64,000 nucleotides of DNA from Candidatus Heimdallarchaeum aukensis (GTDB lineage Archaea; Asgardarchaeota; Heimdallarchaeia; Heimdallarchaeales; Heimdallarchaeaceae): the NCBI GenBank assembly GCA_021513695.1, contig CP084166.1:2720001-2784000 (forward strand), written 5' to 3'. Of this stretch, positions 32,376-54,062 are shown one piece after another. The number at the start of each line of letters is the position of its first letter. The first letter of the stretch is position 1. Below the pieces are notes generated by a model that ran no database searches, had not been told where the DNA came from, and saw nothing but the letters and a program-made list of their open reading frames with translations. The translations under genes and the position numbers were made by a program.

Positions 32376-33038
32376 TTAAACTAATGAGGTATTTATTAAA
32401 TAAGTAGAGAAAATAGCATTCATTAATTCATTTCTTTCTCTGATTAACTCAGTGATGATTTCTCCAAATCTTTCGTCTCTTATTTCTTCTCTAACTTCAT
32501 TCAACAGTATTTCGTTAAGTCCTTTGTTTAAACATAAAGTTATTTTATTGCATTTATACAAGATTGCTAGTAATAGTTTGGTGTGCATGGTTGCTTTTTT
32601 CGAATTAATTATAGTCTCTTGTAATTGATGCATTAGTTCAATTTTTACGCGTTCTTCTGTACAGAAAATTTTTCTTCTTTTAAAAAATAGAAACCTTTTT
32701 TCAGATTTAGTTAGTATTCCGCTCTTAATCATAACTTCAATAAAAGATTCAAGTATTTGATTTGATTTTATGCCTAATGATCTTATCCAAAACCTAATAT
32801 CGCTTTCATGTTCATTTTGCATTTCTTCAATAATATTCTTAAAAATAGGTTGTGTAGTTTCTGATGAAATAATCTCTATCTTATTATCATCTCTAATTTT
32901 TATTAAGTTTAACATCTCTAAATCGATAATTATAGATGAAGGTAAACCATAAAAAATAAGGTCACTACTACTTTTTTCTATCCTTCCTCTCCTTTGATCA
33001 ATTAACAAGATTATTAACTTCTCTGTTAGTAATAACAT
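32376..33038 (-). CDS. GPP34 (GOLPH3/Vps74-like) family protein
   Basis: The N-terminal LLLTEKLIILLIDQRRGRI...YGLPSSIIIDLEMLNLIKIRDD follows the GPP34 pattern (LxEELLLLALDDxxGK...LAGAxLAELxLxGRI). The FWIRSLG...SGILTKSEKRFLFFKRRKI and LLLAILYKCNKI blocks are also in family order. Confidence 0.45.
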   Translation of the reverse strand: MLLLTEKLIILLIDQRRGRIEKSSSDLIFYGLPSSIIIDLEMLNLIKIRDDNKIEIISSETTQPIFKNIIEEMQNEHESDIRFWIRSLGIKSNQILESFIEVMIKSGILTKSEKRFLFFKRRKIFCTEERVKIELMHQLQETIINSKKATMHTKLLLAILYKCNKITLCLNKGLNEILLNEVREEIRDERFGEIITELIRERNELMNAIFSTYLINTSLV

Positions 33039-34873: not shown

Positions 34874-35464
34874 ATGATTGTTAATGAATATGTTGTGATG
34901 AATTTTTTCCTCGAACAGATGTCTCAAGATAAAATTGCTTTTTTAGCAGATAGTCCAGAGAAAAAAGAAAAAATTCGTGAAAAAATAACTTATTTGACCA
35001 AGTGTAATAATCTTCACGATCAAATATTAGCAGCAAAAAGCCTATGGAAAATGCTCTTTGAGAGTGCAATGAGTTTTATTGATGAAAATAAAAGAGGTTA
35101 TGATGACCTTTTCTCTTACTTTGATGCTTTTGTTAATTTTGAAGAGTTGATTTTTGCTTCAGATTCGTTTTATAGAGATCATACTTTACATAGTCTTTGG
35201 GTTTATTTTCTTGGTGAATATCTATTTAGAGCACAGGAATTTCAACCTCTTTGGACGAATTTTAACTATCCATTCCGTGTTTTACTAAAAGCTCAAAAGA
35301 TTCTTGAACATTTAGATTGTCCTGAGGTTTTTGACACTTATTCAAAAACTCTTGATGCTATCATTCCTTTTATTAATTTTGAAGATTCTATCCGCTGTAT
35401 TGCTCCTCTAACGCATCATTTAAATTCTTTAGTGAAATTATTACTGATATTCCTTTTTTTTTGA
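34874..35464 (+). CDS. hypothetical protein
   Basis: ATG-initiated ORF with non-repetitive composition and no recognisable motifs. Confidence 0.4.
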   Translation: MIVNEYVVMNFFLEQMSQDKIAFLADSPEKKEKIREKITYLTKCNNLHDQILAAKSLWKMLFESAMSFIDENKRGYDDLFSYFDAFVNFEELIFASDSFYRDHTLHSLWVYFLGEYLFRAQEFQPLWTNFNYPFRVLLKAQKILEHLDCPEVFDTYSKTLDAIIPFINFEDSIRCIAPLTHHLNSLVKLLLIFLFF

Positions 35465-35625
35465 ATATTTAGTTTCAATATCTTCAATTTGAAAGATTTT
35501 TTCTATTTTTTCTTTTTATATACTCTTTTTTTGATATTTTTTGAATTATTTGTAAAATCTGCCTATCTCTTCACTGTAACCTTTTAGAGATATTGTTAAC
35601 CCTTCATATCGGAATATTTAAATTT

Positions 35626-36603
35626 ATGAATGTATTTTTTCCCCCCATGTCGGATAAAACTCTATTTAAAAAACAATTATTGTTTAAGTATTTACCTGTA
35701 ACAATTTTACTTATTGTTATTGGTATAATCGAACTTCTTTCTATTCTTTTAAATTTTAACCGCCCACAAGATGCTCCTGAGCTGACATGGTTTTTAATTA
35801 TTATTTTGTTAATCGTAGGTATTACAGCAGGTTTTCTAGGCGGTATTATTGGTACTGGTGGTTGCAGTGTTATGCTTCCAATATTACACTTTTGGTTGGG
35901 TTTCCCTGCTCCACTTGCAGTTGGTACAACATTATTTGCTGTTATTTTTACTGCCATATCTGGTGGGTATGGACACTTAATCCGAAAAAATGTAGATAAA
36001 AGAGCATCCATTATCTTAGGATTATCGGGTATTGCTGGTGTCGCTCTTGGTTCTTGGTTATTTACTATGCTGACTGGAGAAAACACAGTAAGATATTTGA
36101 GTTTGATTCTTGGTATTGTTTTTATATGGCCCGCAATTAGGATGACTTGGGAAGGAATAAGGGGCAAGATAATAGATAAAAAAGGTTCTACGGAAATAAA
36201 AACAGAGACTAAAGAGCAGGTAATTAAAGGATCAGTTAAATGGTTAAGTGTATTTGGTTTTATTATTGGAATAACTACTGGCTTAATTGGTCTTGGAGGT
36301 GGTTATGCTCTTGTTCCTGGACTTATATATCTGTTTGGAGCACCTGTTTATATAACAATGGGTACTTCTTTGGCTATTATGATACCTTTAGCTTTAACTG
36401 GTGGGTTGATTAAATTATTCCAAGGATATGTTGTTCTTGACGCCGCTCTGCTTCTTGCAGCAGGAACAATTATTGGTGCTCAAATAGGTTCTGCTGTGAT
36501 TAAAAAATTCAGACCTTATTACTTGAAGCTCATATTTGGTCTGTATTTTGTTTACGTTTCATTAAAGTTCATATTCTGCTTTTTTGGTTTGAGAATATGG
36601 TAA
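35626..36603 (+). CDS. TauE/SafE (DUF81) family sulfite/sulfo-compound exporter
   Basis: Two 4-TM halves, each with G-rich motifs (GFLGGIIGTGGCSVMLPIL and LIGLGGGYALVPGLIYLF). The track start is TTG 35593; candidate ATG starts are 35626 or 35647. Confidence 0.7.
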   Translation: MNVFFPPMSDKTLFKKQLLFKYLPVTILLIVIGIIELLSILLNFNRPQDAPELTWFLIIILLIVGITAGFLGGIIGTGGCSVMLPILHFWLGFPAPLAVGTTLFAVIFTAISGGYGHLIRKNVDKRASIILGLSGIAGVALGSWLFTMLTGENTVRYLSLILGIVFIWPAIRMTWEGIRGKIIDKKGSTEIKTETKEQVIKGSVKWLSVFGFIIGITTGLIGLGGGYALVPGLIYLFGAPVYITMGTSLAIMIPLALTGGLIKLFQGYVVLDAALLLAAGTIIGAQIGSAVIKKFRPYYLKLIFGLYFVYVSLKFIFCFFGLRIW

Positions 36604-36855: not shown

Positions 36856-37977
36856 TCACATTTTCTTTTGGCCATCTATTAACATAAGTACACTTTGTTC
36901 TTTGGGTTTTTCATAGCCCCATTTGTTAATAAATTGCTTCCAACGAGAGTAGATCTTTAATTTATCTGCTTCTGATATTCGATATGAACCTGGTTTGTAA
37001 TCTTTTGTTTTTTCTAAATATTTGTCAAACATGGGTTTAGCATCGTTAAATCCTGGTAAAGATAAATCTTGATAAATTCCTTCTAATACTTTAATCGGAT
37101 TCTTTACAAATTCTTCGTATCTAATTTCAACATAGTTCTCTTTAGGTATTAAATCTAAATCTTGGTAAAACTTGTTGTACATCTGCTCAAAGTTTGATAG
37201 AACGAACTCATCTAGGTCTTCTTCTCTTTCTTGTAATTGAAGCAAACTAATAAGTTTCTTGTGCATTCTTTTTGTTGAAAAGAAAACTTTGTATGGATCT
37301 CTAATTATATGGATAAATTTAGCTTTAGGAAAAAGTTCTGTTAGCAAATCTACCCTTGCAGTATCAATTGGACTTTTCATTACTAGTGTTTTATCTTGCT
37401 TCTTAATTTCTAGTTTTTTGATCAAATAAAGAATACTTCTTTTTAGTTTTCTTTTCTCTTTTTTTGAGACATTCTTGAAAGTTACATACCTGTTGTAATA
37501 GTCTTGATTAGTTGGAAAATAAGCTCCGGTATAAGGAGACATTGTACAAAGATTAGCTATCGCGAAATCATGTTCACTTGGAGAATCAGCTTTAATTTTC
37601 ATATTATCTTGCGGTCTTTTTTCAGGTAAAAATAAAGATAAAAGCCAATTAAAGAAACGAGAAAAACCTAGAAAATAATAGGGAAAGACACTTTCAGTTA
37701 AAGTTATGAATTCGTGTTGGGGGTCACTTACTAATAATTCGTGCAAAAATGTAGTCCCTGTTCTCCAATGACCTAGTATAAAAATTGGTTGTTTCTTTAT
37801 TTTATGCTTAGATATTTTGCGATCAAAAAGAATCTTTTCTATGAGTATTAAAGGACTAAAAATAAATGTAAGAAAAGTTATAATTATTGCTCTTAAGCTG
37901 TATTTCCATGAGATTTTAAATCTATTTTCAAAAAGCAATTTCATCCATTTAGCAAAACTAGTTCCAACTACAAACAT
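36856..37977 (-). CDS. membrane-anchored sulfotransferase (PAPS-dependent family), paralogue 1
   Basis: 5'-PSB P-loop ILGHWRTGTTFLHELL and the 3'-PB region IHIIRDPYKVFFS. An N-terminal hydrophobic segment (AIIITFLTFIFSPLILIEKILF) precedes the catalytic domain. Confidence 0.75.
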   Translation of the reverse strand: MFVVGTSFAKWMKLLFENRFKISWKYSLRAIIITFLTFIFSPLILIEKILFDRKISKHKIKKQPIFILGHWRTGTTFLHELLVSDPQHEFITLTESVFPYYFLGFSRFFNWLLSLFLPEKRPQDNMKIKADSPSEHDFAIANLCTMSPYTGAYFPTNQDYYNRYVTFKNVSKKEKRKLKRSILYLIKKLEIKKQDKTLVMKSPIDTARVDLLTELFPKAKFIHIIRDPYKVFFSTKRMHKKLISLLQLQEREEDLDEFVLSNFEQMYNKFYQDLDLIPKENYVEIRYEEFVKNPIKVLEGIYQDLSLPGFNDAKPMFDKYLEKTKDYKPGSYRISEADKLKIYSRWKQFINKWGYEKPKEQSVLMLIDGQKKM

Positions 37978-38163: not shown

Positions 38164-39039
38164 CTAATCTCTAAGTGAAAATTTGCAGTTAGTGTCTCCT
38201 TTTGCTCTACATTCTGTCTCGCTTACATTTATTTTAGGGTTGTTTAATGCACCCTCAATGAAACCTGTAAAAAAGTCGCACATTGGTTCATCTGATGAGT
38301 AACCTCTACATATTGGGCAGAGTTTCATTACAAATTGATTGTTTTTTTCATCGAAGTCTACTACTGAAATTTCGGATAGCAAATTATAAACATCTTTAGG
38401 GCTAATTACAAGTTTCTTTGAGTAATTTTTTTTAGCTAGCTTATAGCCAAAATATTTTCCAATAGATTCTAGCACATTTTTCTTTATATTTTCATCGTAC
38501 TTAGAATATAGTTCTCTTGCTAACTTTACTGTTCGTTCAGGATAATCATCTAGTAAACCCTTCTCCAGTTCTACTGATTCGAGTAATATAGTTAATGGTA
38601 AATTAGGATCAAAGATATTAAAAAATTCAGGGTTGGTTTGATAAAGATGATATAATTGGTCGTATAATTTTTGAGCCTTTACACCAAAAGTCTCAAAAAT
38701 AGATTTTTCAATATAAGTAATATCTTGGGTTTCAAAGAAATATGAAAAATCTTTCAAAAATTCAATTTCTATTTGCTTAACAAGAAATTGCCCCAACTTT
38801 ACATCTTCTTTTTCAAAGGCATGAACAACAAAAATCAATCCATGCTTTGATGAATAAATGAGGGTTCCATCTTCTGTTTGAATAGCGTAAAGGTTTGAAT
38901 GACCTAATTCTTTTAAGAATAGATCGATTGCACTAGAAACGCCAGCAAAAAGAATTTCATCAATATCTTGTTTTTTGTCAATTGAGAATTTGAATACTGG
39001 TAACCCTGTTAAATGAAAGATGTAAACAGCTTTAATCAT
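38164..39039 (-). CDS. longin-like N-terminal domain plus C-terminal V4R domain protein (TRAPP Bet3/Trs-like)
   Basis: The C-terminal CPICRGY...CDFFTGFIEGALNN...ETECRAKGDTNCKFSL matches the V4R consensus (C..C...G..xG....ETxCxAxGxxxCxF). The N-terminal ~120 aa (MIKAVYIFHLTGLPVFKFS...) have a roadblock/longin-like pattern. Confidence 0.5.
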   Translation of the reverse strand: MIKAVYIFHLTGLPVFKFSIDKKQDIDEILFAGVSSAIDLFLKELGHSNLYAIQTEDGTLIYSSKHGLIFVVHAFEKEDVKLGQFLVKQIEIEFLKDFSYFFETQDITYIEKSIFETFGVKAQKLYDQLYHLYQTNPEFFNIFDPNLPLTILLESVELEKGLLDDYPERTVKLARELYSKYDENIKKNVLESIGKYFGYKLAKKNYSKKLVISPKDVYNLLSEISVVDFDEKNNQFVMKLCPICRGYSSDEPMCDFFTGFIEGALNNPKINVSETECRAKGDTNCKFSLRD

Positions 39040-39097: not shown

Positions 39098-39457
39098 TCA
39101 TTCTTCTCCTAGTAATCTTTTTGATAATTGATAAAATTGGAAAAACATAACCACTAGTAAAATAATTGCTATTACCATTAAACCTAATTTGGTTGGTTTC
39201 CAAATTTGGTCATAAAAGGATTTTGGGTTAAACCAGAAAAACTCATCATAAGCATTCATTAATGAACTGAGTGTTCCAAGTATTCCAAAACTTAATAGTG
39301 GATAGAAAATTTTCTTTTTTTCAAAAAGTGGAAAACGTTTTCTAAGTATAAATATTATAACTACTAAAAAAATAAAAGTAACAAATAGCAATACATCAAA
39401 AATTGCCTTCAAAATAGCTAAAATATTATCAGGCAAGTGAAGAATTACTGAAACCAT
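39098..39457 (-). CDS. small polytopic membrane protein
   Basis: Three predicted TM helices, with an ATG start one nt after the stop of the upstream ORF. Confidence 0.4.
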   Translation of the reverse strand: MVSVILHLPDNILAILKAIFDVLLFVTFIFLVVIIFILRKRFPLFEKKKIFYPLLSFGILGTLSSLMNAYDEFFWFNPKSFYDQIWKPTKLGLMVIAIILLVVMFFQFYQLSKRLLGEE

Positions 39458-39458
39458 T

Positions 39459-39788
39459 TCATAAACCCCATTGTTTTTTTCCTTCAGTAGAAGTTAACAG
39501 TAATCCAATTGCAATTAAAGCTATTGCAGTGAAAAAGAATAGTCCGTCAAAAAGATCGAACCAATCACTCAAATTTCCAAAATCAAATGTGTCAAAGATA
39601 TCGAACAAACTATGTAAAATCCCACAAAATAAACCAACTTGAATAACAATCCAACTCTTTGTGCGAGAAATTTTAGGATAGTTTTTACTTAATATTGAAG
39701 TCATAAAGAATGATGTTGAAAAACCTAAAAATGAAATTATTTCAAATATGAATAAATAAATGTCTGGAGCTTCAAATATTGCCATCAA
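39459..39788 (-). CDS. small polytopic membrane protein
   Basis: Hydrophobic ORF with ATG start. Its TGA stop is separated from the next ATG by one nt (TGAAATG). Confidence 0.4.
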   Translation of the reverse strand: MMAIFEAPDIYLFIFEIISFLGFSTSFFMTSILSKNYPKISRTKSWIVIQVGLFCGILHSLFDIFDTFDFGNLSDWFDLFDGLFFFTAIALIAIGLLLTSTEGKKQWGL

Positions 39789-40000
39789 ACAAAATGTCTT
39801 ATCCTTATTTTTAAGATTTTTGGGTTCAAGAATTAAAAAATGAAAAAAAGCGATGAAATTTTTGGTAAATTCTCGAATTTTTTAAACTTATATCTCCACG
39901 AATTCTATTGCTTGATATAACAATTCTTTTCTTAACGCTTTCCAAAAAGAATTTCAAAGGTTTTATTTTCTCTTCATTATTTTTATCGGTTCTTCACAAC

Positions 40001-40110: not shown

Positions 40111-40194
40111 ACAAAATAAGAATAATTGTGAATAGAATGATGAAAACGGAAAGAAATTCTGACTTCTTCTATAATTTATTTTTTGGTGATAACA

Positions 40195-40728
40195 ATGGTT
40201 AATGTTTATGCAATTGACTATATCATTATGGCTGTGCTTATTATAATAAGCGCAATAATGGCTCTAGAAGCAAGAGAAATAGTCTATGCAATTTTTTTCT
40301 TTGACCTGTTTACAATAGGCATTGGAGGAATGTTTCTTTTATTCAACGCTGGTTATGTGGCAATGTTTCAGTTGGCAGTCTATGCTGGTGCTGTGGCAGT
40401 AACAGTGTTGTTTGCAGTAATGCTTACAAGACGAACTGCGACAGGAAAAGAAATTATCTCTTTTGCATCAATACGAAATAAAATTGCAAGTCTTGTTTTA
40501 GCTCTCAGCATTGCAGCATTAATGCTTATTCTAGTTTCGAGATATGATTGGGCTACTCCTGCTGGTGATTATCCTGATCCATTAGGTGGTGGAGCGATAT
40601 TTACAAGTATAGTTACGAACTATGTTGTACCTTTTCTAGGAATTAGTCTAATTCTTGCTGCTTCTTTGGTAGGAAGCGTTGCATTGCTAAGAGAAGAGAG
40701 AAGTAAAAAGGAGGTTGCCAGTAAATGA
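40195..40728 (+). CDS. nuoJ: complex I subunit J (ND6-like)
   Basis: YAGAVAVTVLFAVMLT and the NuoJ TM pattern. The track start at 40183 is TTG; the likely start is ATG 40195, 5 nt after GGTGA. Confidence 0.8.
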   Translation: MVNVYAIDYIIMAVLIIISAIMALEAREIVYAIFFFDLFTIGIGGMFLLFNAGYVAMFQLAVYAGAVAVTVLFAVMLTRRTATGKEIISFASIRNKIASLVLALSIAALMLILVSRYDWATPAGDYPDPLGGGAIFTSIVTNYVVPFLGISLILAASLVGSVALLREERSKKEVASK

Positions 40729-41087
40729 CAGCAGTTCCAACAGAGTGGACAGTTTATTTGTCAGTAGTAATTTTGTCGATAGGTCTCTATGGTATTTTTA
40801 CTAGACGAAGTATGATACGCATTCTCCTTGGAGTAGAATTAATTTTAGGTGCAGCGACGCTGAATTTTATTGTATTTTCAATGTCTGTGCTAAATGGAGA
40901 TGTAGTAGGTCACATTCTGACCTTATTCGTTATAGCTCTAGCTGCAGCTGAAACAATTATCGGGTTAATCTTGCTTATTATGCTTTACAAAGATGTTGGC
41001 TCTATTGACATTTCTTTAGCAAGTGATGTAAAAGCGGAAGAGCAAGATGAAAATAAATTAACAAGAGGTGAAAAAGAAGATGGGTAA
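40725..41087 (+). CDS. nuoK: complex I subunit K (ND4L-like)
   Basis: LSIGLYGIFTRRSMIRILLGVELILGAATLNF is typical of NuoK. Its ATGA start overlaps the nuoJ stop. Confidence 0.85.
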   Translation: MTAVPTEWTVYLSVVILSIGLYGIFTRRSMIRILLGVELILGAATLNFIVFSMSVLNGDVVGHILTLFVIALAAAETIIGLILLIMLYKDVGSIDISLASDVKAEEQDENKLTRGEKEDG

Positions 41088-41580
41088 ATTTGCAGATTTT
41101 TTTAAGAAATGGGCTCGTAGTTCCTCTATTTGGCCCGTCAGATATTGTGTAGCCTGCTGTTCTACAGAAATGGCGGCAGCAATGGCTTCAAGATTTGATA
41201 TGGAACGTTATGGTGTGATGCCAGTTTGGGGACCTCGTCAAGCTGATTTTCTCATGATTGGTGGAATTGTTACTAAAAAAGCAGCAACAAGAATAAAAAC
41301 AATTTATGAGCAAATGCCTGAACCGAAGTATGTACTAGCTTTAGGTGCTTGTACAAGTGGTGGAGGACCTTATTATGATAGTTACAATGCAGTTCAAGAT
41401 GTAAGTGAGATTGTTCCTATTGATGTATATGTTCCTGGTTGCCCTCCTAGACCAGAAGCAATCCTAAGAGGAATTGAGATGATACAAGAAATGATTAAGA
41501 AAGGAATTAGAGCTGATGCTCCTCTACAAGTCGATGAAAAGACCAAATTGAAGGAGGTTCTAAAGTCATATGAACGTTGA
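41080..41580 (+). CDS. nuoB: complex I subunit B (PSST, N2 cluster)
   Basis: The CCSTEM, GACTSGGGPY and VPGCPP cysteine motifs. The track start at 41068 is GTG; the likely start is ATG 41080 after GAGGTGA. Confidence 0.9.
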   Translation: MGKFADFFKKWARSSSIWPVRYCVACCSTEMAAAMASRFDMERYGVMPVWGPRQADFLMIGGIVTKKAATRIKTIYEQMPEPKYVLALGACTSGGGPYYDSYNAVQDVSEIVPIDVYVPGCPPRPEAILRGIEMIQEMIKKGIRADAPLQVDEKTKLKEVLKSYER

Positions 41581-42040
41581 AGAGTTAAAAAAGAAGTTTC
41601 TAGACAATATAAAAACGGCTCAAGAAGAGAAAATTCAAGATAATCAGATTTTTATTAAAATCGACAAAGAGGATATCAAAACTGTTTCTAAATTTATCAA
41701 GGAGCAATTTGATGACGTAAATAAAATACTAGAGCAAGTTTTTGCTATAGATTTTCCTGATAGAAATGAAATGGAAATGATTTACACCTGGTGGTTTATC
41801 GAATATCATGCCTTAGTTCATTTTCGTGTAATCTTACCATATGATGATCTGAAAGTTGTATCTATTCAAGATGATTGGGTCGCTGCTAATTGGCATGAGC
41901 GAGAAACTTGGGAAATGTTTGGGATAGATTTTGAAGGACATCCAAACTTAAAGCAATTTTTGCTCTCAGACGAACTTTTCGGTAAACATCCTATGAGGAA
42001 ATCTTTCAAAATTGAGCATAATCCGGAGGAAGCAAAATGA
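41570..42040 (+). CDS. nuoC: complex I subunit C (30 kDa)
   Basis: NuoC-like length and conserved WHERETWEMFGIDFEGHPNL block. AGGAGGT upstream. Confidence 0.8.
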   Translation: MNVEELKKKFLDNIKTAQEEKIQDNQIFIKIDKEDIKTVSKFIKEQFDDVNKILEQVFAIDFPDRNEMEMIYTWWFIEYHALVHFRVILPYDDLKVVSIQDDWVAANWHERETWEMFGIDFEGHPNLKQFLLSDELFGKHPMRKSFKIEHNPEEAK

Positions 42041-43152
42041 CAGAAAATAAAGAAAGAAGTTCAAGTTTAGTTTCTTTTAGCTATGGTCCTCAACATCCTG
42101 GAACACATCCTTATTCCTTACTTTTAACTGTTGATGGAGATCGAATAGAAAAAGTAGAAGCACAGATTGGTTATGTTCATAGAGGATTAGCTAAACAAGC
42201 TGAATCAAGAACATTTATCCAAGCTTTACCAATAATGGAAAGATCTTGTTTCATTGATTCAGTTAACCATCAATTTGGTTATGTCATGGCAGTGGAAAAA
42301 TTAGCCGGTATAGAAGTACCAGAAAGAGCAGAATACCTTAGAGTTATTGCTGCTGAATTATCACGCATGAACTCTTTGATAAGCTGGTTTGGTGGTTACG
42401 CAGCTGAAACTGGAATTAACTCAGCTTTCATGTGGGCTTGGAAAGATAGAGAAATGTTTCTTGACCTATTTGGCCATCTTGCAGGAAGCAGAGTTTCTGT
42501 AATGTACTTAACTATCGGAGGAGTTAGGTGGGATTGGAATGATAAGCTAACCAATTTAACTTGGGAAATTATTGATTATATGGAAGAGAGACTAAAAATA
42601 CACAAAAAGCTGGTTATGAAGAATTCAATATTCAAAAAACGAACTAAAGGTGTAGGAGTCGTTTCAAAAGAGAAAGCACTAGAATATGCATTTACAGGGC
42701 CTAACTTAAGAGCTTCAGGAGTACAAGGCGATATTAGAATTTTAGAACCCTATAGTGTTTATGATCATTTCAAATTTACTCCTAAAGTAATGACTGAGGG
42801 AGATAACTGGGCTAGAACCATGATTCGTCTACACGATATTGAAACTAGTATGGAGATTCTAAAACAAGCTCTTCCAGAGATTCCCGAAGGAGAATACAAG
42901 ACTAAAGTTCCTCTAAAATTAAGAGCTAATGCTGGCGAGGCATATGCAAGAGTAGAGTTGTCTAGAGGAGTCATGGGTTATTATATTAGAACAGTGGAGG
43001 ACAAATCAACAAAACCCTATAGAGTTAAAATAAGAGGACCTTCATTCTCACACTTCCAAATTGTAGAAGATATTCTAGTTGGAACACATATGGCTGATAT
43101 TCCAATAATCAAAGGTTCTCTAGATGTATGTCCAGCAGATTTAGATAGATAA
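42037..43152 (+). CDS. nuoD: complex I subunit D (49 kDa), no NiFe-binding cysteines
   Basis: SFSYGPQHPGTHPYSLLLTVDGDRI and the RGxEK-like core. The N- and C-termini lack the RxCGxC and DPCxxC motifs of hydrogenase large subunits. Confidence 0.85.
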   Translation: MTENKERSSSLVSFSYGPQHPGTHPYSLLLTVDGDRIEKVEAQIGYVHRGLAKQAESRTFIQALPIMERSCFIDSVNHQFGYVMAVEKLAGIEVPERAEYLRVIAAELSRMNSLISWFGGYAAETGINSAFMWAWKDREMFLDLFGHLAGSRVSVMYLTIGGVRWDWNDKLTNLTWEIIDYMEERLKIHKKLVMKNSIFKKRTKGVGVVSKEKALEYAFTGPNLRASGVQGDIRILEPYSVYDHFKFTPKVMTEGDNWARTMIRLHDIETSMEILKQALPEIPEGEYKTKVPLKLRANAGEAYARVELSRGVMGYYIRTVEDKSTKPYRVKIRGPSFSHFQIVEDILVGTHMADIPIIKGSLDVCPADLDR

Positions 43153-43165
43153 GAAGGTGAAAGTA

Positions 43166-44140
43166 ATGAATACAGATTTTCTATTTATAAAAGTCGCAGT
43201 ATTTCCTGGTGTCCTTTTCGTACTATTTGGATGTCTTTATTTGATGTATTTCGAAAGGAAAACAATAGCGAGAATTCATGGAAGAATAGGGCCACAATAT
43301 GTAGGCTATGGAGGTTTGTTACAAACAATAGCTGATCTAATGAAATTAATGTTTAAGGAATGGATATTCCCAAAAACAGCAAAGAAAGCAGCTCTATTTC
43401 TAACCCCTATTGCTCTATTTCTACTTGCTTTTCTACCCCTATCGGTTGTTCCATGGGGAGAAAATTGGTATGTAGCAGATTTCAGTGTTACATTGATCTT
43501 TGCATTTGTGGTTATAGCTGCTATTCCTTTCTTAAGCCTTCTACTTGGTTGGTCCTCAGGAAGTAAATATTCTTTGATAGGCGGATACAGAGCTGCATCA
43601 CAACAAATTGTGTTTGAGGTTCCTTTATTTCTTTCTGCATTAACTCCTGCTATACTTGCAAATAGTTTGAGTTTAATGGATATTACAAAAAATCAGAAAA
43701 TATGGTTCCTTGTACTGAATCCAATCGCTGCTTTCGTCTTTTTCGTTTCTATGCTTGCAATGATGGAAAGACAACCTTTTGATATTCCTGAAGCAGAATC
43801 CGAATTAGTATTTGGTTGGAAAACAGAGTTAAGTGGTATTTTCTTTGGTTGGTCAATATTCGCTGGTTACACTATTATGATCGGAGGAAGTGCTCTATTT
43901 GTTGTTTTATTCATGGGTGGTTTTAACGGGCCAGGAAATAATTTAGGTGTCCTATGGTTTATGCTCAAACTAGCTTTGATATGGCTTATTCTTTTCGCTA
44001 TGAGAGCAGTTTTACCAAGATATAGAATGGATCAGATACTAAGAATGTCTTGGAGGTTGATGATACCACTTTCTTTGGTCAGTATTGGCTTATCAATCGG
44101 GTTACTATTTGCATTCCCCAATTTCTTCAGAGGTGTATAA
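43166..44140 (+). CDS. nuoH: complex I subunit H (ND1-like)
   Basis: The ERKTIARIHGRIGPQYVGYGGLLQTIADLMKL region and eight TM helices. The track start at 43157 is GTG; the likely start is ATG 43166 after AAGGTGA. Confidence 0.85.
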   Translation: MNTDFLFIKVAVFPGVLFVLFGCLYLMYFERKTIARIHGRIGPQYVGYGGLLQTIADLMKLMFKEWIFPKTAKKAALFLTPIALFLLAFLPLSVVPWGENWYVADFSVTLIFAFVVIAAIPFLSLLLGWSSGSKYSLIGGYRAASQQIVFEVPLFLSALTPAILANSLSLMDITKNQKIWFLVLNPIAAFVFFVSMLAMMERQPFDIPEAESELVFGWKTELSGIFFGWSIFAGYTIMIGGSALFVVLFMGGFNGPGNNLGVLWFMLKLALIWLILFAMRAVLPRYRMDQILRMSWRLMIPLSLVSIGLSIGLLFAFPNFFRGV

Positions 44141-44183
44141 TTTGGCAGATAAAAACTTTCTAACTAACATAAGATCGTTATAC

Positions 44184-44627
44184 ATGGCTATTGCACAGAT
44201 GTTCAAGAAACCATTCACAACAAAGTATCACACAACAAACAAAGAAAGAATAGTGGAATACGACAGATTGCGTGGAGAACTTATAATGAACTTACCCAAA
44301 TGTGTGGGTTGTACACTATGTGTTCAAGCTTGTCCTAATGCTGCATTGAAAATGGTTTCATATGACAATGGAAATCCAAGAAACAAAAAGAAACATGTTC
44401 CTTCTTTTAATTTAGGACTCTGCAGTTTTTGCGCTTTATGTGTAGAAGCTTGTCCTTATGATGTCCTAGAAATGGGTAAAGTGTACGATAGAGCCTATGC
44501 CACTATGGAAGATATGCTTCGTTCTCCTGAGGAGATGTATGAGGATTGGATTGAACAGAAAGGAGAAGAAGATGAAATAGATCCTGAAGAAATTGAAACT
44601 GACAAAATCGATATCGAGGAGGATTAA
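44184..44627 (+). CDS. nuoI: complex I subunit I (2x[4Fe-4S] ferredoxin-type)
   Basis: CVGCTLCVQACP and CSFCALCVEACP. The track start at 44085 overlaps nuoH; ATG 44184 avoids the overlap. An acidic C-terminal tail. Confidence 0.8.
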   Translation: MAIAQMFKKPFTTKYHTTNKERIVEYDRLRGELIMNLPKCVGCTLCVQACPNAALKMVSYDNGNPRNKKKHVPSFNLGLCSFCALCVEACPYDVLEMGKVYDRAYATMEDMLRSPEEMYEDWIEQKGEEDEIDPEEIETDKIDIEED

Positions 44628-44628
44628 A

Positions 44629-46086
44629 ATGGTTGTTAGTACAGTTTTGTTATTAATTTCTATAATAGCTCCTTTAGTTATAGGATTCTTATTATTCATT
44701 CCATTCCTTCAAAAATATGCAGGGTGGATAACAGCTGGAGTATCTACTGTCGTTTTAGCCTTCTTAATTACTGCTTCTGTTCCAATATGGAACAGTTCTG
44801 TAACAAAAGTGGAACTCCAATGGGCTCCAGCAGCTGGTCTGTTAATGGGATTCTTGTTGGACAATCTATCAGCACTTATTGCATTATTGATAGCAGTTGT
44901 TTCTACCTTAACAGCTTTCTATTCCATAAAATATATGGAGCATGAAGAGAGAAAAGGATTATACTTTAGCTTATACAACTTCTTCTTTGCAGGTATGCTC
45001 GGAGTAGTTCTATCTACAAACCTCCTAGAGTTTTTCTTCTTCTGGGAACTTATGCTAATTCCTAGTTACTTAATGATTGTTTATTGGGGTACTAAAGCTA
45101 AAGCAGCAAAAGTTGCATTGAAGTATTTCTTCTATACTCAAGTGGGTTCTATTGGAATAATTGTTAGTTTTGCAATTATTGCCTTTTATGGTAACAGTTT
45201 AAACATTGCAGAAATTGCAACTAATCTCTCAATATCTTCACTTCCAAATGCTATACTCTACTTAACCTTTATACTACTGATGATAGGTTTAGCTGTAAAA
45301 CTCGCTATCTTTCCTTTCCAAAATTGGTTACCTGATGCTCACGGAGAAGCTCCAACACCAATAAGTGTATTGCTCTCTGCAGTTATGATCGAAACAGCAG
45401 CTTATGCAATAGTTCGTATTGCTATGCAATTTTATGGAGAGATTTTCGAAACATCTAGGATTGTCTTTGAGAGTGTAGGAGTATTTACCCTCTTGTATGG
45501 AGGCTTCTTAGCTTTAAGGCAAACAGATGTTAAAAGACTACTCGCTTATTCTTCTGTAAGCCAAATGGGTTATGTCTTTATTGGTTTATCAACATACAAC
45601 CAATTTGGTGTTTCAGGAGGATTATTCCACATATTAGCTCATGGATTTGGAAAAGGGATACTCTTCATGACTGCAGGAATTCTCATACATGAAGTGAAAA
45701 CTAGAGATATTACTGCAATGGGTGGATTAGGTAGAAAAATGCCTTTCACTGCTATAATTTCATTTATTGCAGCATTAAATCTCGCTGGAACACCCCCACT
45801 AAGTGGATTCTTCAGTGAATGGTTTATCTTTAGTGGCGCATTCTATCAAGCAACAACAGAGTTTGTAATTCTAGGTATTTTTCTATTACTAGGTTCAATA
45901 TTAAGCGCAGCTTATATGCTACGTTTTCTGTGGAAAGTGTTCCTTGGTCCTTTACCAGGAGAACTAGAAAAGACAAAAGAAACAAAGCTATTACTTTGGG
46001 TTCCAGGAGCGATTTTAGCACTATTGGCTATATTCTTCGGTATCTTTGCTAATGTTGCAATTGAACTTTTCAGTACAGTGATTTGA
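44629..46086 (+). CDS. additional antiporter-like subunit, NuoM/ND4-like (or MrpD-like)
   Basis: WLPDAHGEAPTPISVLLSAVMIETAAYAIVRI is a NuoM-type motif. The ATG at 44629 directly follows the nuoI stop, and GAGGAGGA lies upstream. Confidence 0.75.
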   Translation: MVVSTVLLLISIIAPLVIGFLLFIPFLQKYAGWITAGVSTVVLAFLITASVPIWNSSVTKVELQWAPAAGLLMGFLLDNLSALIALLIAVVSTLTAFYSIKYMEHEERKGLYFSLYNFFFAGMLGVVLSTNLLEFFFFWELMLIPSYLMIVYWGTKAKAAKVALKYFFYTQVGSIGIIVSFAIIAFYGNSLNIAEIATNLSISSLPNAILYLTFILLMIGLAVKLAIFPFQNWLPDAHGEAPTPISVLLSAVMIETAAYAIVRIAMQFYGEIFETSRIVFESVGVFTLLYGGFLALRQTDVKRLLAYSSVSQMGYVFIGLSTYNQFGVSGGLFHILAHGFGKGILFMTAGILIHEVKTRDITAMGGLGRKMPFTAIISFIAALNLAGTPPLSGFFSEWFIFSGAFYQATTEFVILGIFLLLGSILSAAYMLRFLWKVFLGPLPGELEKTKETKLLLWVPGAILALLAIFFGIFANVAIELFSTVI

Positions 46087-46095
46087 GGTGAAAAA

Positions 46096-48126
46096 ATGGA
46101 AGCTATAATAATTACAGTATTACTAACAGTTTTGGTTCCTCTTGTAGGAAGCTTGATAAGTCCATTATTAAATAAAATATTGAAAGAGAAAATACACTTT
46201 TATGCTATAGCCATAGCAGTTATAACTGCTGCACTTGGAATAACTTCTTTTTCAATTGGTTTAAGAATGGAGGAAATAGAGCCTTGGACATTCAATTGGA
46301 TTAAAGATCTATTAAATCCTGGAGAGTTTATACAAGGAGGAATTTTTCTAGATAAATTCTCGTTACTTATGCTAATGCTTGTTTCAGTAATAGCCATGTT
46401 GATTGTAATCTTTAGCCATGATTATATGCACGGTGATGATGCTTTACCAAGATATTATTTCTGGATACTATTCTTTATTGGCAGTATGCTAGGGCTAATA
46501 GTATCAGACAACTTGATTCAGTTGTTTATATTCTGGGAAGGTGTAGGATTAGCCAGTTATGGACTAATTGGTTTCTGGAACAGAGAAAATGAAAATGTGA
46601 AGAGTGGTACAAAAGCTTTTCTTGTTACAAGAGCTGGAGATATGGGTTTACTTGCTGCGATAATATTGATTTACTTTAATGTAGGAACACTAAGTTTCTC
46701 TGAATTCACCTCTGATTTTGGAAATATTTTAGGTGAAAGTAAATTAATAGTGTTAGTAGGAGTCTTAATACTCGTTGGAATTGCAGGTAAATCTGCTCAG
46801 TTTCCTTTGCAGTTCTGGTTACCGGAAGCTATGGCAGGTCCTTCAACCGTATCGGCTCTCATCCATGCAGCAACAATGGTTAAAGCTGGTATTTATCTCG
46901 GAGGAAGATTCTTACCTTATTTCTTAACCGCAGCGCCTTTATATGCTGAGCAATTAGAAGTTCTCTTCTTAATAATTGCAGCTGTTGGAGTATTCACAGC
47001 TTTTCTTGCAGCATCTATAGGCATGGCAGCGAGAGAATTCAAAAAAATACTGGCTTTTTCAACTATTTCGCAATTAGGATACATGTTGCTTGCAATTGGT
47101 GTTGCTGGTCTGCTTCATAATGGAGAAGATGCTCTATTTGCTTCTATCTTCCACATGACCTCCCATATGTTCTTCAAAGCATTACTCTTCCTTGGTGCAG
47201 GAGCTATCTTACATTCTGTAACAACTACGAAGGATATCTTTGAAATGGGAGGACTGAGAAAATATATGCCTAAAACAACATTGTTGTTCAGTGCAGGAGC
47301 ATTATCTTTAGCTGGAATACCTCCTTTTGCAGGTTTCTTCTCCAAAGAGACAATATTTTCAAAAATTATTGAGTATATTGAAGAAACTTCATCAGTATGG
47401 GGGTGGATATTCCTGTCATTAGCAGTAATTGCAGCGATAATGACATTATTTTACACGATGCGAATGATAGGTGTAGTTTTCTTTGGAGAAAGTGGAGAAC
47501 ATGTAAAAGAAGCTGAAAAACATGGACATCTTCATGATCCTAGTTGGTTTATGATGGGCCCTTTACTAGTTTTAGCAATAGGATCAACAATATGGGGATT
47601 CTTTGGCGGATTAATAGAACATTGGTTTTATCACGGAGATCAAACCTATGGAGAATGGATAGGCCATATCTTCAGAAATGGATGGGGATGGTTAATATTA
47701 GCTATAATTGTAATTGTTGGTGGAATACCAGGATACCTAATTTACTTTAGAAAAGTAAACAATACTTTCTTTGCCAACTCGTTCTTACAGAAGTTTCTGT
47801 ATAATCGTTGGTATTGGAATTCCTTAATGTTAACTGTTTTCGTTGACGGAACAACAAAAGTTGGAGATCTGCTTCAATATCCAGAAAAAGCACTTGATCA
47901 TGGAACAAACTCCCTTGCAAGTGGAGTTCTTGCTACTGCTAATGCTTTCGAAGTTCTTGATCGCAAAATAGTTGACGGTGCAGTAAACAAAATAGCTTAT
48001 GGTTTCCAATGGATGGGGATGAAACTTCGAAGATTCGAAACAGGCTTCATATCTCAATACCTGTGGATAGGAGCATTTGGTTTTGTTATTCTATTAATTG
48101 GAGTAACACTTGCTATTATATTGTGA
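46096..48126 (+). CDS. nuoL: complex I subunit L (ND5-like, with long C-terminal extension)
   Basis: WLPEAMAGPSTVSALIHAATMVKAGIYL, 676 aa with the C-terminal region typical of NuoL. GAGGTGAAAAAATG start context. Confidence 0.85.
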   Translation: MEAIIITVLLTVLVPLVGSLISPLLNKILKEKIHFYAIAIAVITAALGITSFSIGLRMEEIEPWTFNWIKDLLNPGEFIQGGIFLDKFSLLMLMLVSVIAMLIVIFSHDYMHGDDALPRYYFWILFFIGSMLGLIVSDNLIQLFIFWEGVGLASYGLIGFWNRENENVKSGTKAFLVTRAGDMGLLAAIILIYFNVGTLSFSEFTSDFGNILGESKLIVLVGVLILVGIAGKSAQFPLQFWLPEAMAGPSTVSALIHAATMVKAGIYLGGRFLPYFLTAAPLYAEQLEVLFLIIAAVGVFTAFLAASIGMAAREFKKILAFSTISQLGYMLLAIGVAGLLHNGEDALFASIFHMTSHMFFKALLFLGAGAILHSVTTTKDIFEMGGLRKYMPKTTLLFSAGALSLAGIPPFAGFFSKETIFSKIIEYIEETSSVWGWIFLSLAVIAAIMTLFYTMRMIGVVFFGESGEHVKEAEKHGHLHDPSWFMMGPLLVLAIGSTIWGFFGGLIEHWFYHGDQTYGEWIGHIFRNGWGWLILAIIVIVGGIPGYLIYFRKVNNTFFANSFLQKFLYNRWYWNSLMLTVFVDGTTKVGDLLQYPEKALDHGTNSLASGVLATANAFEVLDRKIVDGAVNKIAYGFQWMGMKLRRFETGFISQYLWIGAFGFVILLIGVTLAIIL

Positions 48127-48135
48127 GGTGAAAAA

Positions 48136-49605
48136 ATGATAGGAATATTAACTACTTTAATAACTGTTCCCCTTATAGGAGCAATAATTGTGTTCTTGAT
48201 TGGAACAAAAAATAAAAAACTTTCAAGACTTTTAGCTCAATTTATAACATTTGCTGAGTTATCAATCTCTTGGAGTTTATTCGCTTTCTATGATAGAATT
48301 AATAAAAGGCTCAATATTGAGGATGAATTTGTACGATGGATAGATTCTTTTTCTATTCATTTTTCGCTCAGCATTGATGGAATAAGCTTTGTGCTAGTAC
48401 TACTCTCAACTACCATCGTATTTCTAGTTGCTCTCCAATCTACATTCGTAATAGAAGAAAATGAACATTTATACTATACTTTGCTTTTACTATTTGAGAC
48501 AGGAATTTTAGGAGTCTTCTTGGCTTCAAACTTAATAATATTCTACATTTTCTGGGAATTAGTTTTAGTTCCAATGTTCTTTCTTATAGGTGAATGGGGT
48601 GGAGAAAGAAAACGTTATGCTGCAGTCAAGTTCTTCATATTTACACATGTAGGAAGCTTGTTTATGCTACTAAGTTTTCTGTATCTATTCATTAACATGA
48701 AAACATTTAGTATTATAGAGTTAAGTCAAAAGGATATACCTGAAATTGTTCAAACCATTGCAGCAATCGGTATCTTCCTTGGAGTGGCAGTAAAACTACC
48801 CGCTGTTCCAATACATTCATGGTTACCTGATGCACATGTAGAAGCTCCAAGTCCAGTAAGTGTATTACTCGCAGGTCTATTGCTAAAAATGGCAGGATAT
48901 GGTTTTCTTAAACTAGGATTGAATATTGTCCCAGAAGGAATAAAAGTCCTGCGTCCTGTTCTTATAACCTTAGGTGTAGTTGGAGCTTTTTATGCTGCTT
49001 TTGCTGCTATAGCACAAAAGGATCTCAAGAGAGTTATTGCTTTTACTTCAATTAATCACATGAGTTTTATCATGATCGCAGTAGCAGTTGCAACACCCCT
49101 TGCAATTATTGGAGCAGTATTTCAAATGATAAGCCATGGAATAATCATAGGGCTAATGTTCTTCCTCTCTGGTATAATACAACACCATGTAGGAACCAGA
49201 GAAATAAACTTACTTGGAGGAATAAAAAAGAAACCTGTTTTAACTGGTTTCTTAATTGTTGGCTCTATAGCTGCATTTGGCGCTCCTCCAATGAGTGGAT
49301 TCATTGCAGAAATGATGATATTCTTTGCTTCGATTCCAGTATATCCTTGGGTAATGACTGTGGCTGCTTTCTCAATCGTAATAACCTCTGTTATTTACCT
49401 TTGGTTACTAACTAGAGTACTATTTACTAATAAAGCAGAAGAAGTAGTTTTTGAGGACCTAGTATCTCATCAGAACTACTTAAAATATGAATTATCAATA
49501 GTTGGTCTCTTATTTATACCTATATTCGTTCTTGGATTCTTTCCAAATTTGTTAGTATCAATTATTGAACAAGCTGTGAACCAGCTTCTTAAAATAATAG
49601 GGTGA
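48136..49605 (+). CDS. nuoM: complex I subunit M (ND4-like)
   Basis: WLPDAHVEAPSPVSVLLAGLLLKMAGYGFLK. GAGGTGAAAAAATG start context. Confidence 0.85.
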   Translation: MIGILTTLITVPLIGAIIVFLIGTKNKKLSRLLAQFITFAELSISWSLFAFYDRINKRLNIEDEFVRWIDSFSIHFSLSIDGISFVLVLLSTTIVFLVALQSTFVIEENEHLYYTLLLLFETGILGVFLASNLIIFYIFWELVLVPMFFLIGEWGGERKRYAAVKFFIFTHVGSLFMLLSFLYLFINMKTFSIIELSQKDIPEIVQTIAAIGIFLGVAVKLPAVPIHSWLPDAHVEAPSPVSVLLAGLLLKMAGYGFLKLGLNIVPEGIKVLRPVLITLGVVGAFYAAFAAIAQKDLKRVIAFTSINHMSFIMIAVAVATPLAIIGAVFQMISHGIIIGLMFFLSGIIQHHVGTREINLLGGIKKKPVLTGFLIVGSIAAFGAPPMSGFIAEMMIFFASIPVYPWVMTVAAFSIVITSVIYLWLLTRVLFTNKAEEVVFEDLVSHQNYLKYELSIVGLLFIPIFVLGFFPNLLVSIIEQAVNQLLKIIG

Positions 49606-49610
49606 AAAAA

Positions 49611-51041
49611 ATGGAAGTAATTATTTATCCTTTAATCGCACTCCTTGTTGGTATTGTGTTAAGTTTAATAACTGGAACACTAAAAAAAGGAGATGTTGCA
49701 CGTACAATAAGTATCTTAAGCCTTATAACAGCGATATCTTTGCTTGCGGTTTTCTATCCTTTCAACGGTCAAAGACTATTCAGTGACACAATTGTTCTAG
49801 ATAATTTTGGAGGATTTTTTGTTTTTCTATTCTTATCTCTCGCTGTATTTATTCTACTTGGAAGCACAAAAGTGTTGGATGAACATCCTGAAATGCCGGC
49901 ACTTTTACTTCTTTCTACAATTGGGATGGCTTTAATCGGAATTACTGATAACTTAGTGATGATCTTTGTAGCTTGGGAATTAATGAGTTTGACAACATAC
50001 GTATTAGCAGGTCTTGGAAAAAGAGAACAATCAACAGAAGCGGCCATGAAATACTACATTTATGGAAGTGTTTCTTCTGCCCTTATTCTATTCTCTATTA
50101 GCTTGATATACGGTATAACTGGCTCTATGCAATTGTCCATAATAGCTACTGTTGCATCTTCACTAGACACAACGGCAATAGGTGTTCTGCTTTTATCTGC
50201 AACAATATTCATCTTTGGTTTTGGATATAAAGTAGGAATAGTTCCATTCCATCTTTGGTTACCAGATGTGTATGAAGGAAGCCCCGCTCCAGTAAGTGGG
50301 CTTCTAGCAGGTGTATCAAAGAAAGTAGCTATTGTCGCAACAGCTAGAATCTTTTTGACTGGATTTGAGAGTGTAGACTTTAATTGGAAAATCCTTTACG
50401 CAATTATAGCTGTAATAACTATGACTGTTGCTAATATTGCTGCTTTATCTCAAAGAAAAGTTGTAAGAATGTTTGCATATAGCTCGATCTCTCAAATAGG
50501 ATACATGATTGTCGGATTTGCTATATTTTCTCCTGAAGGATTGGCAGCAACGATGATGCAACTAACTGTTCATGCAGTTACAACCGTTGGAGCCTTTATC
50601 ACAATAGGTATTATAGCAAAGAAACTAGATCTCAGGACATATGATGACTATAAAGGTTTAGGAGCTAGAAAACCTGTGTTAGGACTAGGTTTGACAATAA
50701 TGATGTTGTCTTTAGCTGGCATTCCTCCTCTTGCAGGATTTGTCAGTAAATTGTTCTTGTTTACTGAAGCAGTAAGAGCTAATTTACTGTGGTTAGCAAT
50801 CGTTTTAGTTTTGAACAGCGTTTTATCGCTTGGTTACTATCTCCCTCTCATAAGAAACATGTATCTTGAGAAACCAGAGAAAACAACAGAAGGCGAAGAA
50901 ACGAAAAAAGAAAAATTCGACACTAGGACTATAGGTCCTATAATGGTCAATATTATGACTACATTAGCTATTGTAATTATACCAATCTTTGCACAAAAGA
51001 TTTTCGACATAATCACTGAAGCAGCTAAAAATGTAATATAG
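49611..51041 (+). CDS. nuoN: complex I subunit N (ND2-like)
   Basis: FHLWLPDVYEGSPAPVSGLLAG. The track start at 49602 is GTG overlapping the nuoM stop; the likely start is ATG 49611 (MEVIIYP...). Confidence 0.85.
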   Translation: MEVIIYPLIALLVGIVLSLITGTLKKGDVARTISILSLITAISLLAVFYPFNGQRLFSDTIVLDNFGGFFVFLFLSLAVFILLGSTKVLDEHPEMPALLLLSTIGMALIGITDNLVMIFVAWELMSLTTYVLAGLGKREQSTEAAMKYYIYGSVSSALILFSISLIYGITGSMQLSIIATVASSLDTTAIGVLLLSATIFIFGFGYKVGIVPFHLWLPDVYEGSPAPVSGLLAGVSKKVAIVATARIFLTGFESVDFNWKILYAIIAVITMTVANIAALSQRKVVRMFAYSSISQIGYMIVGFAIFSPEGLAATMMQLTVHAVTTVGAFITIGIIAKKLDLRTYDDYKGLGARKPVLGLGLTIMMLSLAGIPPLAGFVSKLFLFTEAVRANLLWLAIVLVLNSVLSLGYYLPLIRNMYLEKPEKTTEGEETKKEKFDTRTIGPIMVNIMTTLAIVIIPIFAQKIFDIITEAAKNVI

Positions 51042-51054
51042 AGGTGAAAAAAAG

Positions 51055-51432
51055 ATGATGTTATTTGATGCAATAATTCCAGTACTCGCATTGGGCCTAG
51101 CAGGTATGATTTTCGTAGGTATAATGATGACTTTATCAGTCTTGACTAAACCTAAAGGAGAAAAAACAAAGCTAAAGTTACAAACCTATGAAAGTGGAGA
51201 AGTTCCAGTAACTGACCGTTTAGGATTCCAATTTAATTATCAATACTTTGTTTATGCTATAGTTTTCACTGCTTTGGACGTTATGTCTATTTTCTTATAT
51301 GCGTGGGCTGTTGATTCTGCCCGTTTAGAAACAAACACCTTACTAACGATACTTGGCTTTATCACAATTTTATTCTTGGGCTTTGTTTATGTATCTGTAG
51401 CAACAAGAGAGTGGAAGAAAAATATAATGTAA
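51055..51432 (+). CDS. nuoA: complex I subunit A (ND3-like)
   Basis: YESGEVPVTDRLGFQFNYQYFVYAIVFTALDVMSIFLYAWAV is the NuoA signature. GAGGTGAAAAAAAGATG start context. Confidence 0.85.
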   Translation: MMLFDAIIPVLALGLAGMIFVGIMMTLSVLTKPKGEKTKLKLQTYESGEVPVTDRLGFQFNYQYFVYAIVFTALDVMSIFLYAWAVDSARLETNTLLTILGFITILFLGFVYVSVATREWKKNIM

Positions 51433-51555: not shown

Positions 51556-52218
51556 ATGAAAAAAGATTTGTATTTAACAGAGGAAAATCGAAAAGAAAAA
51601 TCTGTTCAATGGTTAAAAGAATGTAGAAAATACAAAAAAACTAATCCTTTTAACTTTAATTTGAAAACCGCTGCTTTAGTTGTTTTAGATATGCAAAAGG
51701 TTTTTCTCGAAAAAGATTCACACGCTTTTATTCCTTCAGGGGTTACTATTATACCGATCATTAATAAAATAGTAACAAAATTCAACGAATACAAACGTCC
51801 AATTATCTTTTCTAGACATATTTTTCCAGAGAGCAAAGAGTCTCTTTTGTACAAAATTTGGAGAAATTCTATAGATCTTAACCAAGAAGAGTCAGAACTA
51901 GTTGAAGAAATAAAAAGTGGAGGAATTATTCTAATAAAAAGGAATTATAGCGCATTTAGGAAAACTAACCTAGAAACAATTTTAAGAAAAAACAAAGTCA
52001 AACAACTAGTTGTAACAGGGTTAATGAGCCATCTTTGTTGTGATACAACAACAAGGGATGCTTTTATGTTGGGATATGAACCATTTTTTGTTGTTGATGC
52101 TACAGCTACCTATAATGAAACTTTACATTTAGGAACACTAAGAGCGCTTTCTCATGGATTTTCAGTACCTATTGTTTCGGAGGAGATAATTAATTGGAAA
52201 GAAAATCCAAAAATGTAG
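51556..52218 (+). CDS. isochorismatase-family cysteine hydrolase
   Basis: AALVVLDMQKVF (Asp), the Lys region and VVTGLMSHLCCDTTTRDA (catalytic Cys). Confidence 0.75.
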   Translation: MKKDLYLTEENRKEKSVQWLKECRKYKKTNPFNFNLKTAALVVLDMQKVFLEKDSHAFIPSGVTIIPIINKIVTKFNEYKRPIIFSRHIFPESKESLLYKIWRNSIDLNQEESELVEEIKSGGIILIKRNYSAFRKTNLETILRKNKVKQLVVTGLMSHLCCDTTTRDAFMLGYEPFFVVDATATYNETLHLGTLRALSHGFSVPIVSEEIINWKENPKM

Positions 52219-54045: not shown

Positions 54046-54062
54046 AAAAAAAGAAAAAGAAG

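Follow-up and report, generated by a model that had tools for sequence, protein, structure and literature searches.

Longin and roadblock domains build platforms which switch small GTPases on specific membranes, as in TRAPP, Mon1-Ccz1, Ragulator and the signal recognition particle (SRP) receptor, and the longin domains of TRAPP, Mon1-Ccz1, DENN and the SRP receptor serve as GTPase-binding platforms. Solved structures exist for Asgard longin, roadblock and TRAPPC3-like proteins, and the origin of the membrane attachment of longin/roadblock platforms is an open question in eukaryogenesis. Here we examine gene C, which lies at 38164..39039 on the minus strand of a 64,000-nucleotide stretch of the Candidatus Heimdallarchaeum aukensis genome (contig CP084166.1, forward-strand positions 2,720,001 to 2,784,000; hereafter the window). 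Its soluble 291-residue product joins in one chain a longin and a V4R/TRAPPC3-like domain, the two folds which build the eukaryotic TRAPP vesicle-traffic complex, and is encoded together with two small membrane proteins, A and B.

The eukaryotic TRAPP core, an exchange factor for Rab1/Ypt1, carries these folds on separate polypeptides (Bet3, Trs31 and Trs33, and the longins Bet5, Trs23 and Trs20), whereas in C they are fused. Furthermore, TRAPP has no integral membrane subunit, and Bet3 is acylated and has lost the zinc site; C, for its part, fails the Pfam threshold for TRAPP. The prokaryotic V4R proteins, which include the phenol sensors PoxR, DmpR and XylR as well as MJ1460, MsvR and BchJ, stand alone or are fused to AAA+ or helix-turn-helix (HTH) modules, and we know of none with a longin domain or a dedicated pair of membrane proteins. 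In the SRP receptor, the SRX longin of SRalpha sits on membrane-anchored SRbeta, a GTPase with one transmembrane helix, and there is no V4R domain. Ragulator-Rag also has no V4R domain, and its anchor is the lipidated LAMTOR1 rather than a pair of paralogues with three transmembrane helices.

The longin–V4R fusion itself is not new. A longin-TRAPPC3 fusion was noted for a single Heimdall sequence and predicted by AlphaFold2 to form a homodimer (Tran, Akil, Senju & Robinson 2024, Commun Biol 7:273, Suppl. Fig. 10g; PMC10933270). A candidate orthologue of C, it carries a longin and then a TRAPPC3/V4R domain and belongs to the same phylum. The same study described a zinc ion bound through four cysteines, and ligand cavities, in Thor-TRAPPC3 (PMC10933270).

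At the locus studied here, gene C is preceded on the minus strand by gene A (39459..39788), the first gene of the unit, and by gene B (39098..39457), which lies directly upstream of C. A single nucleotide separates the stop of A from the start of B, and B is followed by C after 58 nt. There is strong comparative evidence that A, B and C constitute a functional unit, for which a physical complex is the simplest reading, because the same three gene families are associated across many Asgard lineages, in three gene orders and with one duplication. In scans of the fetched loci with hidden Markov models, the window and 19 more distinct loci of its (main) subfamily had upstream sequence, and every one of them shows the order A-B-C. 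These 20 loci represent Heimdall, Hod, Loki and Thor lineages and one metagenome-assembled genome which NCBI labels ‘Odin’, an unverified assignment; the two main-subfamily loci without A-B-C are truncated. The remaining neighbour genes vary from locus to locus. The order A-B-C also occurs in a further Heimdall lineage at ~30% identity (L053). A more divergent member, L041, has the order C-A-B, and at L040 a shorter longin-V4R protein of 268 residues is preceded by a single B-like gene.

In three Thorarchaeota loci a second full-length paralogue, C', is found just upstream of gene A (L013 2255..3199; L018 1133..2170; L019 515..1435), which gives the order C'-A-B-C, and it retains all five cysteines conserved in C (see below). 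Such a duplication would fit a C/C' heterodimer matched to the A/B pair. To date, the A-B-C unit is apparently known only from Asgard archaea.

Gene C corresponds to an open reading frame (ORF) at exactly the coordinates given above, and no transmembrane segment is predicted in its product. An earlier note on this DNA, made from the letters alone, had proposed a V4R domain preceded by a longin- or roadblock-like one and had called for profile searches and AlphaFold modelling; the profile searches support the V4R assignment, and the model supports both V4R and longin. Pfam V4R (PF02830) matches residues 237-290 (38170..38331) with 51.2 bits against a gathering score of 31 (E=1.3e-13), and the C-terminal sequence quoted in the earlier note is present. 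The TRAPP family (PF04051) scores 13.4 bits (E=0.067), below its cut-off of 27, and over residues 249-286 only. Fuz_longin_1 (PF19036) is likewise a weak match below threshold (16 bits, cut-off 26.1, E=0.014, residues 3-79), and relatives of the N-terminal domain yield equally weak Fuz_longin_1 or Robl_LC7 matches. Other weak sub-threshold matches involve H-NOB (E=0.0045) and the NCBIfam families BchJ and MsvR. A sequence search of solved structures returned the V4R protein MJ1460 alone (2osd; E=0.0017, residues 177-290); with the family profile, matches to DinB and C3-exoenzyme also appeared in the PDB search, but at E 0.07-0.4 these resemble noise and MJ1460 is the sole credible match.

The AlphaFold2 model of C, built on a 17-sequence alignment, has a predicted local distance difference test (pLDDT) score of 85 and a predicted template modelling score of 0.81. 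Residues 1-135 (38635..39039) adopt a beta-beta-alpha-beta-beta-beta-alpha-alpha order, with strands at residues 2-9 and 14-19, a helix at 28-45, strands at 51-55, 58-65 and 68-74 and helices at 79-103 and 112-135. The helices at the C-terminal end of this domain indicate a longin and not a roadblock topology. The domain matches solved longin domains strongly, with comparison figures of 13.9 and 13.2 for SRalpha, 13.8 for Sec22b, 12.9 for VAMP7 and 12.7 for delta-COP, followed by a Loki longin (11.5), TRAPPC4 (11.4), AP sigma (11.4), Mon1/Ccz1 (~11) and sedlin (11.0). No special affinity to the TRAPP longins is apparent. Helix alpha1 (residues 28-45; 38905..38958) carries at its start LF[AG]G[VF]SSAI, the most conserved N-terminal motif, which is invariant in the family alignment and includes the invariant G33 and S35. 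Despite this conservation, the helix has the lowest confidence of the model (pLDDT 57-61), and it may mark a partner-dependent interface.

The complete V4R/TRAPPC3-like domain comprises residues ~139-291 (38167..38625): five helices (residues 139-224) are followed by beta-beta-alpha-beta-beta, the arrangement of V4R and TRAPPC3. As in PoxR and MJ1460, this is a two-layer alpha/beta fold in which N-terminal helices accompany a four-stranded sheet. Comparison figures are 12.2 for PoxR, 11.6 for Thor-TRAPPC3 (7yh2), 11.4 for DmpR, 11.1 for Bet3 and 10.7 for MJ1460, and Foldseek agrees with both fold assignments. Since the Pfam TRAPP match does not reach its threshold and the fold resembles Bet3 no more than it does bacterial V4R sensors, there is no support for counting C as a member of the eukaryotic TRAPP family proper.

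V4R domains can carry a metal (zinc) site in which Cys/Glu residues tie the sheet to helix D. Five cysteines are invariant in the alignment of the C family (C241, C244, C254, C277 and C285), and they occupy loop, helix-start and hairpin positions of the V4R fold. This cluster is probably a zinc site. The possibility, raised in the earlier note, that the cysteines belong to an unrelated rubredoxin-like zinc ribbon is excluded: no zinc-ribbon family is found in C by Pfam at E<=1, the sequence has one CPxC only and not two CxxC knuckles, and the other cysteines occur singly, distributed between helix D and the final hairpin within a complete V4R fold.

The closest homologue of C, from Ca. Heimdallarchaeum endolithica, is 92% identical. 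Homologues fell into 16 clusters in a single-sequence search and 38 in a profile search, the full-length ones being 290-310 residues long. Every cluster named for an organism is Asgard (Heimdall, Hod, Thor, Loki and the ‘Odin’-labelled genome), and no cultured strain was found among the clusters searched. All homologues have a precomputed PF02830 match, and their annotations read only ‘V4R domain-containing’, ‘predicted hydrocarbon binding protein’ or ‘hypothetical’. An exhaustive HMMER search of 1.84 billion cluster representatives returned 15 C clusters at E<=1e-30, mostly full-length, with a tail of matches to the N-terminal 130 residues alone or to the V4R part alone. Relatives of the N-terminal domain also occur in other architectures (P0105, P0124, P0133). 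These are longin/roadblock proteins of 419-422 residues with an NPRL3-like C-terminal HTH, and a 520-residue protein which combines Robl_LC7 with V4R, which suggests that longin/roadblock and V4R-type folds have been paired repeatedly.

Hydropathy indicates three hydrophobic helices in each of the partner proteins. Protein A has 108-109 residues, its true start being probably the ATG at 39785, and the alignment shows conserved Y37, W46, H59, D63, D66, T67, D75 and D81. Protein B has 119 residues and is 100% identical to K9W45_12185 of Ca. Heimdallarchaeum aukensis. Its AlphaFold2 model (pLDDT 90) contains three long helices and a small beta pair contributed by the N-terminus and the second loop. 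A loop with the motif RKR(Y/F)P is predicted to be cytoplasmic, and the conserved outer loop reads MDAxDEFFWFxPKxFYDxIWKP. On the basis of the positive-inside rule, both proteins would have the N-terminus outside, the basic R-Y-P loop and the C-tail in the cytoplasm, and the acidic/aromatic conserved loop outside. Aligned from end to end, the A and B profiles reach an hhalign probability of 90% (E=1.4e-6), and the two proteins are therefore paralogues. Neither has a Pfam or NCBIfam match. The B family comprises 61 homologue clusters, and those named for an organism are all Asgard. A fold search with B returned only generic three-helix matches to parts of G-protein-coupled receptors, ORAI, DAD1 and Vtc1, which are uninformative.

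The unit seems to be transcribed from its own start. A probable archaeal B recognition element/TATA promoter, AACCCAAAAATCTTAAAAATAAG, is located at 39804..39826 on the minus strand, 19-41 nt upstream of the A ATG. The block is identical at 23/23 positions between both Heimdallarchaeum species, whereas the DNA further upstream and the upstream neighbour gene differ; this suggests that the putative promoter is the unit’s own. Transcription from it would give a leaderless or short-leader transcript.

A sister subfamily of longin-V4R proteins (P0097/P0099), 20-30% identical to the main one, introduces a further set of neighbours. Here gene C is flanked in 4/4 loci by a gene for a Ras/Roc-type (Ras/Rab-like) GTPase of 192-194 residues and by a gene for a ~270-residue protein, an all-helical repeat with no Pfam match. 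The clusters counted are L042 (1612..3004), L043 (1465..2925), L045 and L051, while L044 duplicates L042. A metagenome scan for the subfamily added only two full-length loci, both on short contigs, and the truncated L051, so that the GTPase link is thinly sampled; L045 and L051 are metagenomic, and both the GTPase and the helical-protein gene are present even in L051. In L042 and L043, A-like and B-like genes adjoin C or lie <=2 kb off, in convergent or nearby position. Within the main subfamily, only L005 has a related GTPase gene nearby; it is 37% identical, lies 2.3 kb upstream and is read from the opposite strand.

In the window, no GTPase gene lies <=20 kb from C, the nearest being an Arf-like gene 27 kb away. 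This gene (10864..11844, minus strand) encodes 326 residues, with an Arf domain at residues 11-172 (Pfam E=7e-19), a weak SRPRB match and ~150 further C-terminal residues of no assigned fold. Its product could be a candidate partner GTPase of C. In the Loki strain MK-D1, the genes for GTPases and regulators generally stand outside operons (PMC10933270), so that such partners cannot be guessed from gene order.

The neighbour stressed by the earlier note is a sulfotransferase gene at 36856..37977 on the minus strand (Sulfotransfer_3, E=1.4e-33). The reported 186-nt gap and the shared strand are correct; the V4R gene had been called downstream, but it lies upstream of the sulfotransferase gene because the minus strand encodes both. 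Membrane anchoring of the sulfotransferase is plausible, since it has one N-terminal hydrophobic segment at about residues 28-46. The suggested association with C does not extend beyond the genus: the two genes are adjacent only in Heimdallarchaeum, and the sulfotransferase is absent at all other fetched Asgard loci. By tblastn, the window sulfotransferase and the neighbouring TauE protein matched only Ca. H. endolithica among the fetched loci, and the sulfotransferase is absent from six other neighbourhoods retrieved by exact protein look-up. Moreover, the gap between C and the sulfotransferase contains a TTTATAAA element, so that the sulfotransferase gene probably has its own promoter. The conserved partners of C are A and B, not the sulfotransferase. 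As to the latter’s own surroundings, a TauE/SafE anion-exporter gene (35593..36603, plus strand) is convergent with it, the pair is kept in both Heimdallarchaeum species, and a second Sulfotransfer_3 paralogue is found at 54063..55238.

We propose that A, B and C form a longin–V4R platform or sensor docked at the membrane, with a possible tie to small-GTPase signalling, a reading which we regard as evenly poised. As C lacks a membrane segment, an A/B heterodimer which anchors a C dimer at the cytoplasmic face would be the natural model. The two paralogues would associate pseudo-symmetrically in the cytoplasmic membrane, and their cytoplasmic R-Y-P loops and C-terminal tails would dock the C dimer. 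The longin domains could then form a membrane-proximal platform similar to those on which TRAPP, Mon1-Ccz1, Ragulator and the SRP receptor bind small GTPases, and the V4R domain may bind a hydrophobic or redox-active ligand which modulates this platform. A GTPase platform is favoured because longins such as those of TRAPP and the SRP receptor bind GTPases and because a GTPase gene clusters with the sister subfamily. What the analysis shows directly is the ORFs, both folds of C, the A/B paralogy, the strict synteny, the apparent confinement to Asgard archaea and the GTPase genes beside the sister subfamily; a physical complex, dimers, bound zinc, a bound ligand and any control of GTPases by A, B and C are inferred.

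Several observations weigh against this proposal. What points to a physical A/B/C complex is synteny alone. The GTPase link comes from some three independent lineages, all in a different subfamily, and 19 of the 20 main-subfamily loci, the window included, have no GTPase gene nearby. Furthermore, the V4R domain of C resembles bacterial ligand sensors at least as much as it does Bet3, and five conserved cysteines are one more than a zinc site needs.

The main alternative is a membrane-associated small-molecule or redox sensor operating without a GTPase. The V4R domain would respond to a hydrophobic compound or to redox state via the cysteine cluster, as in the phenol sensors PoxR/DmpR or in MsvR, the longin domain would only dimerise the protein or transmit the signal, and the output would be the regulation of A/B in whatever membrane role they have, for example as a small channel, transporter or anchor. 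We judge this possible, if on the doubtful side, and for the window’s own subfamily, which has no GTPase neighbour, it is nearly as likely as the platform. Yet the V4R sensors known so far carry DNA-binding or AAA+ outputs rather than a longin, known longins are overwhelmingly protein-protein platforms, typically for GTPases or SNAREs, and a small GTPase is consistently clustered with the sister subfamily.

It seems improbable that the membrane-docked platform is a membrane-anchored ‘mini-TRAPP’, that is, an exchange factor or a GTPase-activating protein/effector platform for Rab/Ras-like GTPases, in which an ancestral fused and membrane-bound state would have given rise to the soluble multi-subunit TRAPP core. 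Quite unlikely, too, is a module for lipid binding or transfer or for membrane-protein assembly, in which the V4R cavity would hold a lipid or acyl chain, much as palmitate is held by Bet3, and A/B would be the donor or acceptor site. The strict co-encoding of C with integral membrane proteins would suit such a role, as would the cavities of Thor-TRAPPC3, for which ligand transport has been speculated, and the palmitate bound by mouse TRAPPC3 (PMC10933270); but the argument is by analogy alone, and the neighbourhoods hold no conserved lipid-metabolism gene. Very hard to sustain is the view that C is a true TRAPP-subunit orthologue acting in vesicle tethering or trafficking and functionally coupled to the sulfotransferase: both TRAPP core folds are present in C, the host is an Asgard archaeon and the window holds a GPP34/GOLPH3-like and an Arf-like GTPase gene, but the TRAPP profile and the Bet3 comparison speak against orthology, TRAPP is free of integral membrane subunits, and the sulfotransferase is a neighbour only within Heimdallarchaeum, beyond a 186-nt gap whose TTTATAAA element makes a separate promoter probable. 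The single result which hints at a trafficking role is the Ras/Rab-like GTPase clustered with the sister subfamily.

Coupling to the divergently transcribed complex-I-like (nuo) operon (40183..51432, plus strand) was also considered and rejected. In H. endolithica (L001 4457..5287) gene A abuts another block, with isochorismatase, Pyr_redox, radical-SAM and sulfotransferase genes, at a distance of 160 nt. The same block is found in the window at 51556..55238, beyond the 11-kb nuo operon, so that the operon was inserted or relocated between the species.

Some other features of the window may be recorded. A GPP34 (Golgi phosphoprotein 3/GOLPH3 family) ORF of 220 residues lies at 32376..33038 on the minus strand (E=2e-18), ~5 kb from A-B-C, and represents another eukaryote-associated membrane-traffic family. 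The plus-strand ORF at 34874..35464 (196 residues) matches the first 188 residues of a 515-residue H. endolithica protein at 88% identity (L001 9960..11507); the window copy appears truncated, and the TauE gene begins 130 nt later. At 17452..19464 (plus strand) a 670-residue protein consists almost entirely of HEAT repeats (HEAT_2, E=7e-114), and at 59087..62065 (minus strand) a 992-residue protein carries both a response-regulator receiver and a PPDK_N ATP-binding domain.

A full-text literature search yielded no account of the A/B membrane partners, of the spread of the family over Heimdall, Hod, Loki and Thor, or of the GTPase clustering of the sister subfamily, and the texts of two recent large Asgard surveys which cite Tran et al. 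make no reference to longin or V4R. The conserved family, to date recorded only in Asgard archaea, its obligate pairing with two paralogous three-transmembrane-helix proteins, the Thor duplication and the GTPase-linked sister subfamily thus appear to be undescribed. The locus provides a compact and testable set of partners, two membrane proteins and a longin–V4R protein, to which the sister subfamily adds a GTPase and a helical protein. If C acts as proposed, no membrane receptor of an Asgard longin/TRAPP-like protein would have been defined before A and B; if C is instead a ligand or redox sensor, the unit would represent a new output architecture for V4R domains.
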